DNA of 41,778 bases from a virus. Each line of letters opens with the position of its first letter. Positions within the stretch are counted from its first letter, which is position 1. Made by a program: the position numbers and the translations under genes. Positions 16,413-21,724 of this stretch are shown here, piece by piece. Where the stretch lies: UHGV virus genome UHGV-0176688. One strand, 5' to 3'. Under the pieces are notes generated by a model, which was given only the letters and a program-made list of their open reading frames with translations, had not been told where the DNA came from and searched no databases.

Positions 16413-16706
16413 TTATGGTTGAATCCAGTTATCTTCAATAGCAATGCTCAATCTTTGTAACCATTCTGCTAATTTCAGCATTGCTTCTCTTTCGCTTAAA
16501 CCACGAGGAAAATCATCAAGCGATATTGTTGGCTTGAAGTTTCCCAAATTATCCATTTCAACGGTCAGATTTTGCTCCAGCACGGTATTCCTTACGCGGC
16601 TATTGTGCCGAAGCAAATATACTGAACGTGATTTATTGGTTTTGTGGTCGAACGTATATTCGGTAAGTATCATCTGGCTTCCGCCATGATTATTACCGCG
16701 CCACAT
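16413..16706 (-). CDS. Hypothetical protein
   Basis: 97-aa ORF; alternative start at MILTEYTF (16673). Confidence 0.4.
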   Translation of the reverse strand: MWRGNNHGGSQMILTEYTFDHKTNKSRSVYLLRHNSRVRNTVLEQNLTVEMDNLGNFKPTISLDDFPRGLSEREAMLKLAEWLQRLSIAIEDNWIQP

Positions 16707-16992
16707 AATTACTCCGTGTTAATTTTACCTTTATCGCGAACACCTTTACCGGTTTATCGCCGAAGTGCGGGTGTGTGATTATCTTAATTTCATAGCCGTC
16801 ATACGGAACATCAATTCTGCGGCTGGAATCGTCGCGCTTCGGATATCCCTTTGTGATAATCAGGCGGTCATACTCGCGGAACATAATTCGCTTATTCCAG
16901 TAGTCATTACACAGGCGATACTCTTCTGTTTTCTCTCCGCGAATCATTGCATCGAAGTATTCACCTTTGACGGCAAGTTGCAGGTTAGCCAC
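16693..16992 (-). CDS. ASCH/PUA-like (DUF3850-type) small protein
   Basis: GTG start 6 nt after RBS AAGGAG; KGEYFDAMIRGEKTEEYR...RLIITKGYP pattern. Confidence 0.45.
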   Translation of the reverse strand: MANLQLAVKGEYFDAMIRGEKTEEYRLCNDYWNKRIMFREYDRLIITKGYPKRDDSSRRIDVPYDGYEIKIITHPHFGDKPVKVFAIKVKLTRSNYVAR

Positions 16993-17236
16993 GGTTAACT
17001 CCTTGCTGTGTAGCGTCGAGTAATAAATCCCACAACCGCTGAGAGCAATTTCCGCATGTACAGCGCTGACCCACAACGTTTATCGCGTTGCTGATTTCCG
17101 GCGTTACCTGTTTAGGAACCATAACCCAACCATCCGGAGTTACCGGAGAGTTGCCAGCCAGTCTACGCAAAACAGCCTTAACAGCCTCAATACGGTCATC
17201 ATCGCAACTTTCCAGCGTATCTATGCGGTCGAGCAT
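16985..17236 (-). CDS. Hypothetical protein
   Basis: 83-aa ORF whose stop overlaps the downstream GTG start by 8 nt. Confidence 0.4.
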   Translation of the reverse strand: MLDRIDTLESCDDDRIEAVKAVLRRLAGNSPVTPDGWVMVPKQVTPEISNAINVVGQRCTCGNCSQRLWDLLLDATQQGVNRG

Positions 17237-17329
17237 GATGATTGCGTTATCAATATCAGGATTGCCGGTCCACTCATTACCGCGATTGGATTCGGCAGCC
17301 TGGTTGCCGTGTACTGTTTGATTCTCGGC

Positions 17330-17932
17330 TTAACCCAGTCTGTCGTCGCTGCATGAATGCCCTTCCAGCCAGGCCAGTGCTTGTCGCATGAAATACGCAA
17401 TATGCTTGCCGTGGTAATCGTCTTCATCGATGTGAAAAGCGATACTGCGGATGTATTCAATTGCGTTTTCAATGGCCTCCGGCGTTATCGGCGTTGACAT
17501 ATTTTGATATTGGAGTGCCAAGACGCGGCTGGCATCCTCAACACCTTTAACTGCATCTGCGCAGTAGTTATAGCGATTGCATTCCACTAACTTTTGCTTT
17601 AGGTTTTCAATTGCTTGCGCGATATCAGCCTGTATTACCGGCGCTGGCGGTGCGGTATAAAACTTCGTCCCCAACGGCAACAACTTCATCGCTTTTTCTC
17701 CCTTAATGATGCGATAAGTTGATTTCCCGCCAAGGTCTACCGTTCCATCCATAACAAGGCCATATCGCTTCTCTGAAACTTCACCAATAGGCTCTGCTTC
17801 CAGCGATGCCTGTGCGATACGAAACACATTGGCAAGCAGGCTGTCTGTAGATTGGTTATCGTGCGCCGGGTCGCTCAGGAAACCAGTGATGAATGATTTA
17901 ATTTCCGCGTTTTCTCTGGTAATAGTGGTCAT
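17330..17932 (-). CDS. Hypothetical protein
   Basis: 200-aa ORF overlapping upstream stop (ATGA). Confidence 0.55.
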   Translation of the reverse strand: MTTITRENAEIKSFITGFLSDPAHDNQSTDSLLANVFRIAQASLEAEPIGEVSEKRYGLVMDGTVDLGGKSTYRIIKGEKAMKLLPLGTKFYTAPPAPVIQADIAQAIENLKQKLVECNRYNYCADAVKGVEDASRVLALQYQNMSTPITPEAIENAIEYIRSIAFHIDEDDYHGKHIAYFMRQALAWLEGHSCSDDRLG

Positions 17933-18138
17933 TTGTTAATCCTTAAAACTTTATGCCCTGGCGCAAAAGCACGTGTTTTGTCTTTGCTTATTCGCCACCC
18001 GTCTTTACGGGCCTCTTTTGCACAACCAGACCATGACGTACCGATATACTCACCGAAGTCTGGCACTGGATATACACCTTCCGTACACTGGCGGCAGTCA
18101 CAATAGAGATGCATGGTGTAACTTGCGGCAATAGCCAT
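17929..18138 (-). CDS. Small Cys-rich protein
   Basis: ATG 18138 with RBS AAGGAG 7 nt upstream; MAIAASYTMHLYCDCRQCTEG... Confidence 0.5.
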   Translation of the reverse strand: MAIAASYTMHLYCDCRQCTEGVYPVPDFGEYIGTSWSGCAKEARKDGWRISKDKTRAFAPGHKVLRINK

Positions 18139-18139
18139 A

Positions 18140-18328
18140 TCACTCTCCTTTAGTGCGCAAATGGTTTCTCCAGCGGTTTTGCGCCGCGCTGGGCTTTTTG
18201 CAAAAACCACAATCCATCATCCCGTAATATTTCATCAACCCCATCCGTCGGTTGCTGAGTCTCACCCACTGCCAGACGCCAGGAGCGTTTCTACGAACTA
18301 ACAGAATCTTTGCTTTACGGTTTTTCAT
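18140..18328 (-). CDS. Small basic protein, MKNRKAK family copy 1
   Basis: 62 aa; start overlaps stop of copy 2 (ATGA). Confidence 0.45.
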   Translation of the reverse strand: MKNRKAKILLVRRNAPGVWQWVRLSNRRMGLMKYYGMMDCGFCKKPSAAQNRWRNHLRTKGE

Positions 18329-18501
18329 CTTACTGCGTACCCTTTCTTCCGCCTGTTCTGTGACGCAGTAGGCTTACGCTTTGCGGCAAAAGCCACCTGA
18401 CCAAATGGATGGAGTACCGCTATCTTATGGTTGCTAATAACCAGCTCCACCACACGCACAGGTCGCTGTAAAAAAAGTCGTTTTGCCTTACGGTTTTTCA
18501 T
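18325..18501 (-). CDS. Small basic protein, MKNRKAK family copy 2
   Basis: 58 aa MKNRKAKRLFLQRPVRVVELVISNHKIAVLHPFGQVAFAAKRKPTASQNRRKKGYAVR; RBS GGAGAG; below track cutoff. Confidence 0.4.
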   Translation of the reverse strand: MKNRKAKRLFLQRPVRVVELVISNHKIAVLHPFGQVAFAAKRKPTASQNRRKKGYAVR

Positions 18502-18593
18502 CGCTTTGCTCTCCTGCGTCTCTTTGCTGCTCGTCGTGCCGCTGCAATACCGGTATGGCGGCGCTTTGGTGCCGGGATGATGTTGTCAGCCAT
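18498..18593 (-). CDS. Tiny arginine-rich peptide (31 aa), speculative
   Basis: MADNIIPAPKRRHTGIAAARRAAKRRRRAKR; stop overlaps next ATG; weak RBS. Confidence 0.2.
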   Translation of the reverse strand: MADNIIPAPKRRHTGIAAARRAAKRRRRAKR

Positions 18594-18673
18594 CAGGACA
18601 TGTGGCTTTGCAATTAGCGCAGAAGCCCAAAAACGAGTCGGGTACGGTAACAAGCCGATACATGCCACACGCA

Positions 18674-19153
18674 TTACTCACCTTCTTTGATGCGAATGCC
18701 AGCGGCGCGTGGCACATTAACTTCCACGATGCGCACAGTTGGTTTGTACATCTCAATCGCTGTCAGCCAGTCAGCGCCGGTCATATGCTTTTCTGCATCG
18801 CCATTAGTCCATTGAACCGGCACGCCAATAGCTTTCATCGCAATTTCTATTTCCCCGGCAATGGCGCTTTTCCCGCAACCAGTAAAACCAGAGACAACGA
18901 CAAGAACTTCGCCTTTGGCTGGTTTTATTTCCCGCGCCTCCACCTCTGCAATTCGGCACATAGCATCGATATTTGTGTCTTCCAGGCGTTTAACTTCATC
19001 CAATAATGCCAACGCGATATCTGGCGAAAAGTGCTTCATAAAATCGTTAAGCGCATTAATTCGCTGATCGAAAGGCATTACAGGCGCTTCACCAGCAATT
19101 TTTGTTTTTTCAGCAATTTCACGAAGCTTTTGATAGTCAATTTTGTTTGTCAT
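18674..19153 (-). CDS. Hypothetical protein with Walker-A-like motif
   Basis: GFTGCGKS fits GxxxxGKS; 159 aa. Confidence 0.45.
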   Translation of the reverse strand: MTNKIDYQKLREIAEKTKIAGEAPVMPFDQRINALNDFMKHFSPDIALALLDEVKRLEDTNIDAMCRIAEVEAREIKPAKGEVLVVVSGFTGCGKSAIAGEIEIAMKAIGVPVQWTNGDAEKHMTGADWLTAIEMYKPTVRIVEVNVPRAAGIRIKEGE

Positions 19154-20028
19154 GCCACTACCTCTTCGAATTTCAACTCCAATTGGTCACCCCAGATTTC
19201 ACATGATTCGGAACACGAACCAGTATCAAACCGCTTGGCCTGCACCATCGCCTGATACAAATTTCTGTAGTCGCTGTCGGCATACATTCTGGCAATCCCG
19301 TCAAGCGTCAGGTGACCACGGTACATAACGTCTTTACCTGTTCTGCGATGACCATCCCTGACGTGTTTGCCTGTAACCAGCTCATTAAAAATTCGCATCA
19401 GACCAGGTTCGTCTTTACATGCAAGCCCCAGCTTTTGCGTTGACTTTTTGATGCAAAAAACACAGTTCCCGAGGTGCTCCGGGATTTGCAAATCAAAAGG
19501 TTGTTTTCGCCACCACCGGATAACATCCGACTTATCAAAATCTGACAGCTCGGCAAGATACCGGACGCCCGGTTTCGGTTTCAGCCTACGGGGTTCGTCC
19601 GCACGAATACCCAGCCATGTGATGTAATTCCCTCGCCCAAAATGGTCATCGCAATATTTCGTGAAAGGGGTGAGTTTTAGCCTGTCAGTACAGAACGCGC
19701 CGCCGATGTATGGCGTACCGTACTTTTTAACCATGTCCATAAACGGTTTAAGCACCGGCATTCGCGTCTGAATATCCTTTGGTTCCCATTCCGTATAACC
19801 ATTTGGCTGCCCAAGTTCTGGATTTATATCGACCTGCAACACCGTTAGCGGTACATTCCAGAACTTCACAACCTCACGAATAAAGCGATACGTCAGAGGA
19901 TGTTCACAGCCGGTATCCATAAAAATGAAATGGACGCTAGCGCCAGCTTTTCGCTGTGCTTCCATCAGATGAACGAGATAAGCCGATGTTCGTCCACCTG
20001 AAAAGCTGACGACTTGATGCATACTCAC
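19150..20028 (-). CDS. PAPS reductase-like PP-loop protein (CysH/DndC superfamily)
   Basis: PP-loop VVSFSGGRTS and FMDTGCEHPLTYRF motif. Confidence 0.75.
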   Translation of the reverse strand: MSMHQVVSFSGGRTSAYLVHLMEAQRKAGASVHFIFMDTGCEHPLTYRFIREVVKFWNVPLTVLQVDINPELGQPNGYTEWEPKDIQTRMPVLKPFMDMVKKYGTPYIGGAFCTDRLKLTPFTKYCDDHFGRGNYITWLGIRADEPRRLKPKPGVRYLAELSDFDKSDVIRWWRKQPFDLQIPEHLGNCVFCIKKSTQKLGLACKDEPGLMRIFNELVTGKHVRDGHRRTGKDVMYRGHLTLDGIARMYADSDYRNLYQAMVQAKRFDTGSCSESCEIWGDQLELKFEEVVA

Positions 20029-20031
20029 GGT

Positions 20032-20724
20032 TTATTCCTGAACGCGCTTAAACTCGATTACCCATACCCACGGGTTAGATAGCCAGTTCTCCTGCCCGTA
20101 AAGACTGCGCCAGATATCACCAAAACCAACGCGATAAACAGCTTCCGGCGGCGTAATTTTGTACATCGCCGGAGATGCGCCTTCTGCTTTAGCATCTGCC
20201 TCGCTCATATCACGCAGCCGTTCCACACGCACGTCGGTAATTTCCAGCAAAATGCGCGATGCCCAGCGCGGCATGTGAATTGATGGACGCCACCCGCCAT
20301 CAAATTTTTCATTCACAGTGTGAGGTTTCCAGTCGGCATCATCGGGTATCGACCACAAGCCGTAATCACCCGGCTTTTGCTCACAACTGGCCCGATAAAT
20401 CCTTGCTGCGTTCTTCTCATCGCCACGACAAAGGTTGTCGTTCCAGTCCACACTGCAACCATCCTCATTGCCTAATATCGCCCACGCCTCACGGACCCAT
20501 ATGCGATCACCAACGTTACCGAACGGGCATAAACCATGTTCAGGTGCATCCATAACGTGGGTATAGACACCATTGCGTTTCTTTGTCGGTTTACGGATAA
20601 CCAGGCAGTTATCGGCCCTGACATTTTTTACAGGTCGGCGAGTCTGCGTCTTCCTTCCTTCGAGGATGGCCCTGACCATCTCATCGTTAAAAATCATCCC
20701 GCGTTCTTTCATTTTTTGATCCAC
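20032..20724 (-). CDS. ASCH/PUA-like domain protein
   Basis: MIFNDEMVRAILEGRKTQTRRP...RILLEITDVRVERL; start may be the internal Met at 20697. Confidence 0.45.
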   Translation of the reverse strand: MDQKMKERGMIFNDEMVRAILEGRKTQTRRPVKNVRADNCLVIRKPTKKRNGVYTHVMDAPEHGLCPFGNVGDRIWVREAWAILGNEDGCSVDWNDNLCRGDEKNAARIYRASCEQKPGDYGLWSIPDDADWKPHTVNEKFDGGWRPSIHMPRWASRILLEITDVRVERLRDMSEADAKAEGASPAMYKITPPEAVYRVGFGDIWRSLYGQENWLSNPWVWVIEFKRVQE

Positions 20725-20728
20725 CTCA

Positions 20729-21724
20729 TCAGTTATTGAACGTGATCACTCCGCGCTCGATGGCGAAGTCGAAAAGCTGGTTAGCTGCTACGTAAAGGCG
20801 TATGCCATGTGCTTTTTCCCATGCCCGGACATCGTTTTCTGCGCTTCTGGCGCAGTCATCGCAAAGAGGAACAGCCCAGCGGTCGTGTTCGTTTAACGAG
20901 CGGGCGCGGTACATGAATGGGTGATTAACCTTGCCGCCGCAGCCTACACACGGGCGAGACACCACAAACCGGAGATAAGCCGGGCTTTTTCCGAGTAAGG
21001 TTTTTGGACGGCGCATATATAGGAGGCCAGAATCTTCATCGACGGACAGATTGACGATCTGCTCTGCGGAAATATCCACCAGCTCGCGGGTACTATGCTC
21101 CCAGGTAATATCCGACTCTTTCAGAGTGCCGGTAGGGATTTCAGTTTTTGGCTGACAAAATGCAATGCGACCAGCTTCATCAGGCAGTTCGTCTTTAAGA
21201 TTCCGGCGAATGGCCCAAAAGGTGAGTTCAACCATGCTCAGATCGCGATCTGGCGGAAGTTTTAACTCGCTGGCAGCCCAGTTCATAATCCAGTTGGCGC
21301 GATTCCGTGACAGTTGGTCTTCCAGCTTGCCGTATCCCTTCATCATGTATTCCGCATCATGCTTCCAGCACAGGCGAACGGCAGAACCGTTATAGAAATG
21401 GGTGGTTAGCTGGTGGCTGCAATCGCGCTTATCATGCGCCTGGCAATCGTGAATGTTGGTGCTAACCCAGTGAACGAGAGAATCCTCACCACCTAACGCG
21501 TTAAATACACGCTCACTTTGAAAAAAGGGGGCCAGTGACTGGTTGGCAACCAGTGAATAATTCAGGTCAACGACACCATCAGGGGTGTTTTCAGCCTGTT
21601 CACGCGGCAATGGGGATATAAGAAAACGGCGTCCTGCGCCGATGTAATTGCTGGTGGGCTTATCTACAGGAAAGACAGCCACACCAGTTTCATTTACGAC
21701 ATATGGGGTGATTATTGCACTCAT
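20729..21724 (-). CDS. Hypothetical protein with C-terminal HNH-like zinc-ribbon motif
   Basis: CVGCGGKVNHPFMYRARSLNEHDRWAVPLCDDC (CxxC...H-N-H...CxxC). Confidence 0.45.
   Translation of the reverse strand: MSAIITPYVVNETGVAVFPVDKPTSNYIGAGRRFLISPLPREQAENTPDGVVDLNYSLVANQSLAPFFQSERVFNALGGEDSLVHWVSTNIHDCQAHDKRDCSHQLTTHFYNGSAVRLCWKHDAEYMMKGYGKLEDQLSRNRANWIMNWAASELKLPPDRDLSMVELTFWAIRRNLKDELPDEAGRIAFCQPKTEIPTGTLKESDITWEHSTRELVDISAEQIVNLSVDEDSGLLYMRRPKTLLGKSPAYLRFVVSRPCVGCGGKVNHPFMYRARSLNEHDRWAVPLCDDCARSAENDVRAWEKAHGIRLYVAANQLFDFAIERGVITFNN

Follow-up and report, generated by a model that had tools for sequence, protein, structure and literature searches.

A run of three small, overlapping ORFs for strongly basic proteins in a D6/P1-like phage-plasmid

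The minus strand of a D6/P1-like phage-plasmid carries three very short ORFs whose products are strongly basic and whose stop and start codons overlap. The whole stretch of DNA that we analysed, 41,778 nucleotides in length and hereafter called the window, has its best DNA matches in phage D6, P1-like plasmids and Shiga-toxin (Stx) phages, and the E. coli plasmid pE2863-2 matches it at 99.6% identity. The explanation that we regard as likely overall is that the ORFs are a genuine, closely packed run of genes within a leftward accessory operon, that their translation is coupled, that two of them are paralogues belonging to the phrog_1380 family, and that their products may have a role involving nucleic acids. 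An earlier note on this DNA had pointed to a train of tiny basic ORFs. That observation is essentially right, strand and the length of one ORF aside, whereas the function it suggested finds no support.

Layout and junctions of the gene run

ORF3, ORF2 and ORF1 are read in this order from the minus strand (Table 1). The earlier note did not state the strand, but it had recognised the two ORFs beginning with MKNRKAK, of 62 and 58 amino acids, the ATGA overlaps, and approximately 20 nucleotides of duplicated start context. All of these features are present, and the duplication corresponds to a 21-nucleotide direct repeat whose two copies are 95% identical and are spaced 173 nucleotides apart. The Arg-rich ORF of 31 amino acids that had been read separately, from a start at 18593, belongs to the 58-amino-acid ORF3 and makes up its C-terminal half. 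The description of the peptides as highly basic was accurate, in that the three proteins have net charges of +14, +15 and +14, and pI values of 11.5-12.0.

Table 1. Features of the gene run and its flanks (positions in the window)
Feature	Position	Strand	Remarks
69-aa Cys-rich gene, phrog_926	17929-18138	minus	Downstream; a single nt separates its start from the ORF1 stop
ORF1	18140-18328	minus	62 aa; MKNRKAKILLV...; MKNRKAK unit type A; tail ..QNRWRNHLRTKGE; full translation MKNRKAKILLVRRNAPGVWQWVRLSNRRMGLMKYYGMMDCGFCKKPSAAQNRWRNHLRTKGE
AAGGAG Shine-Dalgarno of 69-aa gene	18145-18150	minus	Within final ORF1 codons (..K G E stop, T, ATG)
21-nt direct repeat, copy 1	18309-18329		ORF1 start context; 933W one-unit copy-number boundary here
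ATGA overlap, ORF2 stop/ORF1 start	18325-18328	minus	From sequence; plus strand reads tcat
ORF2	18325-18501	minus	58 aa; MKNRKAKRLFL...; unit type B; tail ..QNRRKKGYAVR; full translation MKNRKAKRLFLQRPVRVVELVISNHKIAVLHPFGQVAFAAKRKPTASQNRRKKGYAVR
21-nt direct repeat, copy 2	18482-18502		ORF2 start context; repeat family D2
ATGA overlap, ORF3 stop/ORF2 start	18498-18501	minus	From sequence; plus strand reads tcat
ORF3	18498-18674	minus	58 aa; N-terminal half hydrophobic and Pro-rich, C-terminal tail Arg-rich (..PAPKRRHTGIAAARRAAKRRRRAKR)
AGGAGA Shine-Dalgarno of ORF2	18510-18515	minus	8 nt before the ORF2 ATG; formed by AGG AGA, two Arg codons in the ORF3 tail
TAATG junction	18672-18676	minus	Stop of the Ead/Ea22-like P-loop gene overlaps the ORF3 ATG; from sequence
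159-aa gene, Ead/Ea22-like N-terminus and P-loop	18674-19153	minus	Upstream of ORF3

The run shows both features expected of a coupled operon, overlapping stop and start codons and a ribosome-binding site inside the preceding gene, as judged from the sequence. The ATG of ORF3 is itself preceded by the ribosome-binding-like sequence AAGGTGAG, and the Shine-Dalgarno sequence of ORF2 is unchanged among the window, 933W and RCS47. The start of ORF3 lies on the stop of the gene upstream, the ATGA overlaps join ORF3 to ORF2 and ORF2 to ORF1, and the final codons of each gene hold the ribosome-binding site of the next. These overlaps and embedded sites make it most likely that translational coupling yields ORF3, ORF2 and ORF1 one after another from a single mRNA.

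The neighbouring genes are all oriented leftward as well. A scan of positions 16500-21000 for sigma-70-like promoters on both strands found 0, compared with 6.1 +/- 2.4 in shuffled sequences, and this absence fits a long unidirectional leftward operon extending from ~26.8 kb to 13.1 kb.

The gene at 18674-19153 (minus strand) fuses its Ead/Ea22-like N-terminus to a P-loop domain with weak APS-kinase-like matches, and a 292-amino-acid protein of the PAPS-reductase family is encoded at 19150-20028 (minus strand), where PADLOC reports SspD (E 1.8e-13) and weaker matches to DndC and BrxP. These two genes could form a phage sulfur- or nucleotide-modification pair. On the downstream side, the 69-amino-acid phrog_926 gene, whose start at 18138 has AAGGAG 6 nucleotides upstream, can be extended to a GTG start, giving an ORF of 93 amino acids (17929-18210, minus strand). 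The 933W homologue of this gene is annotated as the 95-amino-acid L0068. In a different frame, L0068 runs into the homologue of ORF1, and its annotated start is probably over-extended.

More than 200 related loci show the order of the run: ORF3 is followed by an ATGA overlap, by one to three ATGA-joined units of the MKNRKAK type, and then by a variable gene that starts 1 nucleotide past the stop of the last unit. The 58- and 62-amino-acid units occur together as in the window in 83 loci, a single 62-amino-acid unit is present in 56, and other combinations are also found. Adjacent units overlap by 4 nucleotides in nearly all multi-unit loci, and the exceptions involve truncated or separated units. 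When 80 loci were selected for the presence of ORF3, all of them close relatives with 97-100% identity, a unit began at the ATGA overlap in 79, and the one exception coincides with a contig edge; a variant junction is additionally present in one of the 80. The arrangement of ORF3 followed by one to three units, seen across the more than 200 loci, exceeds chance.

Comparison of positions 18130-18690 of the window with the Stx phage 933W reveals two clean deletions in the latter. One removes exactly one unit, the 173-nucleotide ORF2 block, and has its boundaries in the ~21-nucleotide repeated start. The other is a 21-nucleotide (7-codon), in-frame deletion in ORF3 that is seen in 933W-type phages; it eliminates the internal Met codon and leaves an ORF of 52 amino acids. 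The difference of one unit fits a change in copy number through recombination between repeated unit starts, as the position of the boundaries suggests. Units are also found in elements that lack ORF3. Salmonella phage Sasha (Sashavirus) has a unit, gp78, that is ATGA-coupled after a ParB-like gene. The unit gp113 occurs alone in Av-05, a virulent phage (Vequintavirinae). That units stand alone in these two phages therefore indicates that the unit moves as an independent gene.

Protein families and selection on the reading frames

ORF1 and ORF2 both correspond over their full lengths to the HMM of phrog_1380, a family of 62-amino-acid phage proteins that has no name and no Pfam model. Residues 1-62 of ORF1 align with profile positions 1-62 of 62 (E 5e-40), and residues 1-58 of ORF2 align with positions 1-60 of 62 (E 6.5e-23). 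The paralogy proposed in the earlier note is borne out by their 33% identity and by motifs that are common to both proteins; ORF1 and ORF2 are old paralogues within a small family. Family proteins are ~58-65 amino acids long and share three motifs, which ORF1 and ORF2 have also: M[KN]NRKA[KR]xL at the N-terminus, a hydrophobic-basic-hydrophobic stretch that ends in SN[RH][RK], and K-x-SAAQNRWKNH. In alignments, N3, R4 and K5 are invariant, and S25, N26, K45, Q50 and R52 are conserved at 90% or more, while the segment between SN[RH][RK] and K-x-SAAQNRWKNH is highly variable.

When 1.84 billion representatives were searched at 50% identity, the family comprised 44 clusters; at 90% identity it comprised 210, all of which derive from phages or prophages of Enterobacterales and all of which are unnamed. 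Homologues of ORF1 with 48-77% identity retain full length, and full-length homologues of the units with 35-60% identity are found in Salmonella, Enterobacter, Hafnia, Citrobacter, Phytobacter and unrelated phages. A scan for the MKNRKAK pattern in one genome per species gave 53 pattern matches, none of which is a relative; these species representatives do not contain the family. Searches of Pfam, NCBIfam and PADLOC gave no family for any of the three ORFs.

ORF3 belongs to a different group, phrog_13831, which consists of 58-amino-acid phage proteins. The entire ORF3 (residues 1-58) matches profile positions 1-58 of 58 (E 8.6e-42), a relationship in which the 31-amino-acid reading would represent only the C-terminal half. 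The longer reading is also favoured by the start codons. Among ORF3 homologues of 52-61 amino acids, Met1 is invariant, whereas the internal ATG at 18591-18593 (Met28) is not conserved. ORF3 starts with ATG or GTG in all related loci and always overlaps the preceding stop; in ~60 loci the junction reads TAGTG, a variant that preserves the stop while providing GTG as the start. A total of 86 homologous clusters was detected for ORF3, most of which contain proteins of 56-61 amino acids.

Several lines of evidence indicate that the encoded proteins are under selection. The ~300 related loci obtained from IMG/VR yielded MKNRKAK units in 91 versions that differ at the nucleotide level. For 11 subfamily representatives, the pooled pN/pS is 0.53 in frame, and 1.03 and 1.08 in the shifted frames. 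Sets of units that have the same length and align without gaps, and that are therefore free of alignment bias, gave in-frame values of 0.32 (186 nucleotides), 0.51 (174 nucleotides) and 0.64 (189 nucleotides), the last being a weak signal when compared with 0.76-1.64 in the other frames of this set. For ORF1 the value is 0.32 in frame and more than 1.1 in shifted frames. ORF3 has a pN/pS of 0.39 within its class and of 0.53 between divergent classes, as opposed to 0.97 and 0.96 in shifted frames, although this signal depends on few variable sites. The N-terminal half of ORF3 is weakly distinguished when taken alone (0.55, versus 0.71 and 1.11 in other frames). The Arg-rich tail is in part subject to a second constraint, as its AGG AGA codons form the Shine-Dalgarno sequence of ORF2.

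Among the other frames, only the antisense mirror frame has similarly low values in the 186- and 174-nucleotide sets, because it shares third codon positions with the units. A gene on the plus strand was considered and rejected. Opposite the units in the window the mirror frame is interrupted by stop codons, and opposite ORF3 it offers only a 37-amino-acid ORF. A plus-strand gene would also run against the direction of the 14-kb unidirectional operon and have no promoter-like site.

Residues that are invariant in the units are encoded by several synonymous codons, a pattern indicating that it is the protein rather than the DNA that is selected. Examples are N3 (AAC/AAT), K5 and K7 (AAA/AAG), A6 (GCA/GCT) and L9 (CTT/CTG/CTA), as well as conserved Ser (AGC/AGT), Gln (CAA/CAG) and Arg (CGC/AGG/AGA) residues; conserved residues of ORF3 likewise are written with several synonymous codons. 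Insertions and deletions across related loci are in frame, so that both the units and ORF3 combine frame-specific purifying selection with frame-preserving indels. The earlier note had named a lack of translation together with unconserved frames as grounds to abandon the ORFs, and the frames are kept in relatives. On these comparative grounds, the three ORFs are genuine genes that are selected at the protein level.

A different interpretation is that the ORFs are not functional, and that their ends are conserved at the DNA level, as linkers for recombination and as sites where ribosomes bind to translate neighbouring genes, with the reading frames being incidental. Some properties of the units are suggestive of this. 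The last ~8 codons, in which the following gene has its ribosome-binding site, vary with the identity of that gene (..RKKGYAVR before another unit, ..HLRTKGE before other genes), and tails that travel with the downstream site have given rise to chimeric units. The copy-number boundary lies within the repeated start, the middle of the unit is very variable, annotation is inconsistent, and frameshifted variants exist. However, SAAQNRWKNH is retained whichever tail comes after it, synonymous codon variation at invariant residues extends over the N-terminal, central and C-terminal motifs, pN/pS is frame-specific, and the full-length frame is maintained at 35-50% identity in unrelated phages. A confident, compact structural model is also obtained from the family alignment (see below). 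We therefore find it highly improbable that the frames are incidental.

Fused and frameshifted variants are frequent in public data (P0077, P0090, P0038, P0042, P0221 and P0123), and a frameshifted variant of ORF3 is present on 95 public contigs. The genes are therefore dispensable, often decaying, and turning over. In addition, deposited proteins are often fusions between two units, fusions between a unit and a neighbour, or units partly in another frame, and the module thus undergoes decay and recombination frequently.

Predicted fold and possible functions

AlphaFold2 predicts a compact structure for ORF1 when supplied with a 42-sequence alignment (pLDDT 84.7, pTM 0.54), although the model is strongly alignment-dependent. 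The predicted elements are a helix (residues 4-11), three strands (20-23, 28-32 and 38-43) and a second helix (48-60). A run with 10 sequences yielded three helices at pLDDT 68.6 and pTM 0.25, and was set aside in favor of the 42-sequence run. In the preferred model, the conserved basic motifs would map to helix 1, to the turn between strands 1 and 2, and to the start of helix 2. The only match in a structure search of BFVD is the family member from phage Av-05, no significant structural neighbours were found, and searches of PDB sequences with family profiles returned nothing.

The order of elements, helix, three strands, helix, is also that of double-stranded RNA-binding domains (dsRBDs) and of HicA, and raises the question of whether the MKNRKAK units are divergent dsRNA binders or mRNA interferase toxins. 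In dsRBDs, contacts with RNA fall in the places where the three conserved motifs of the units lie, and E. coli HicA carries SNH, as do type-B units. Nonetheless, the resemblance does not extend to three-dimensional or profile similarity. Alignment of profiles by hhalign gave a probability of 0.1% for E. coli HicA, none of 42 family members matches the Pfam models dsrm or HicA_toxin, and the equivalent of the catalytic His of HicA is Arg in most members. The identification with HicA or a dsRBD, which the element order and SNH had prompted, was rejected on these profile and fold tests, and we consider a divergent relationship of the modelled fold to either group to be improbable.

The earlier note had compared the Arg-rich peptides to RNA-binding motifs of antiterminators or to ribosome-associated peptides. 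The N proteins of lambda, P22 and phi21 and the Nun protein of HK022 have a short, very Arg-rich segment within a small early phage protein, as does ORF3, and the tail of ORF3, KRRHTGIAAARRAAKRRRRAKR, resembles an arginine-rich motif. The pI of 11.5-12 of all three proteins and the location of the module in the early leftward operon of Stx phages are also in keeping with such a role. However, the Arg-rich motif of N and Nun is N-terminal, whereas the Arg-rich stretch of ORF3 is at the C-terminus, and two of its Arg codons double as the Shine-Dalgarno sequence of ORF2. With 58 amino acids, ORF3 is too short to accommodate the NusA- and RNA polymerase-binding regions of N-type proteins, and none of the three proteins matches an N-protein family in Pfam or NCBIfam at E values up to 1.

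The RNA signals on which such proteins act were also sought. Hairpins of the boxB type, which the earlier note had recommended looking for nearby, are no more frequent than chance predicts (2 in the window, with 2.6 expected), and none lies within ~8 kb of the ORFs. A scan for boxA on the transcribed (minus) strand found none, an Rfam search gave no match, and folding of the 561-nucleotide segment of the transcript is not superior to that of shuffled sequences (z = +0.22). The genes are located in the middle of the operon, and units are present also in virulent or unrelated phages that have no lambdoid context. Antiterminators comparable to lambda N or to Nun are thus a very improbable explanation, as are ribosome-associated peptides, a link that nothing in the analysis supports.

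What the proteins do instead can be proposed with more caution. Their charge of about +14, the AlphaFold2 fold and the placement of the motifs suggest that they may be small folded nucleic-acid binders with accessory functions, the likeliest of the roles considered, though one that we hold tentatively. The conserved Asn, Arg and Lys motifs may form one binding face, and charge and motif placement make binding to RNA or another polyanion plausible. Such proteins would have RNA or DNA as their target and would exert their effect soon after infection or induction begins. ORF3 would be a partner protein of the unit that follows it, or mainly a leader for coupling. In a more specific and rather unlikely scenario, the MKNRKAK family represents an unrecognised nucleic-acid-binding fold that reprograms host or phage RNA or DNA, with the Arg-rich ORF3 as its obligate upstream partner in lambdoid and P1-like elements.

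The main rival to nucleic-acid binding is that the proteins are real but have another target, such as an acidic host protein or the membrane, where they would serve as host-takeover or anti-defence factors and their charge would serve this interaction. The regions in which the genes occur are accessory, early-expressed and highly mosaic, and host-modulating genes abound there. The genes themselves are dispensable and patchily distributed, their copy number and neighbours vary, and the N-terminal half of ORF3 is hydrophobic. The known effect that the exo-xis region has on the lysis-lysogeny decision (PMC8614690, PMC3824215) is also compatible with a target of this type. Nevertheless, conserved clusters of Asn, Arg and Lys are more typical of nucleic-acid contacts, no candidate target is indicated, and neither PADLOC nor any characterised family gives a match. 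A non-nucleic-acid target is accordingly a minority view on our part, albeit one to be taken seriously.

Distribution, annotation and the exo-xis region

Matches to the module are present in 898 of 5426 complete E. coli genomes, where plasmids account for 324 of the places and chromosomes for 805. The carriers are Stx prophages and P1-like plasmid prophages, the latter often with resistance genes. In Stx phages such as 933W, the same module is situated between an ea22-like gene and xis, that is, in the exo-xis region. Ribosome profiling has shown that several small lambda ORFs in the exo-xis region are expressed (PMC8614690). The small exo-xis genes found in lambda and in Stx phages (orf60a, orf61, orf63, orf73, ea22 and ea8.5) share the Stx neighbourhood with the module and are likewise small, early and accessory, but these families are unrelated in sequence to the three ORFs. 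Lambda is not among the matches listed in a tblastn search of a phage collection. The exo-xis papers that we consulted cover other ORFs but not these three, and a literature search for the peptide string found no paper in the collection searched.

The remark in the earlier note that the ORFs are near typical annotation cut-offs agrees with inconsistent RefSeq calls across pE2863-2, RCS47 and 933W. ORF1 and ORF3 are called on pE2863-2 and ORF2 is not, whereas only ORF2 is called on phage RCS47. All three exact proteins have nonetheless been deposited as "hypothetical" or "prophage" proteins, with ORF1 occurring on 299 contigs, and ORF2 and ORF3 on at least 1000 each. The genes are thus not new, but are already catalogued as uncharacterised small phage proteins, and as hypothetical proteins in catalogues they open no new question. 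Their erratic annotation means that comparative and functional studies may therefore miss them or merge them with neighbouring genes.

As real, probably coupled and copy-variable genes, they are clean targets for deletion and expression tests. The module is common in E. coli, on both Stx and P1-like plasmid prophages, and the exo-xis region of Stx phages is known to influence prophage induction and hence toxin production. If the MKNRKAK family does represent an unrecognised nucleic-acid-binding fold, temperate and virulent phages of enterobacteria would deploy this fold early, in one to three tandem copies, and its possible roles would include setting the lysis-lysogeny balance of Stx phages or countering nucleic-acid-based defence.
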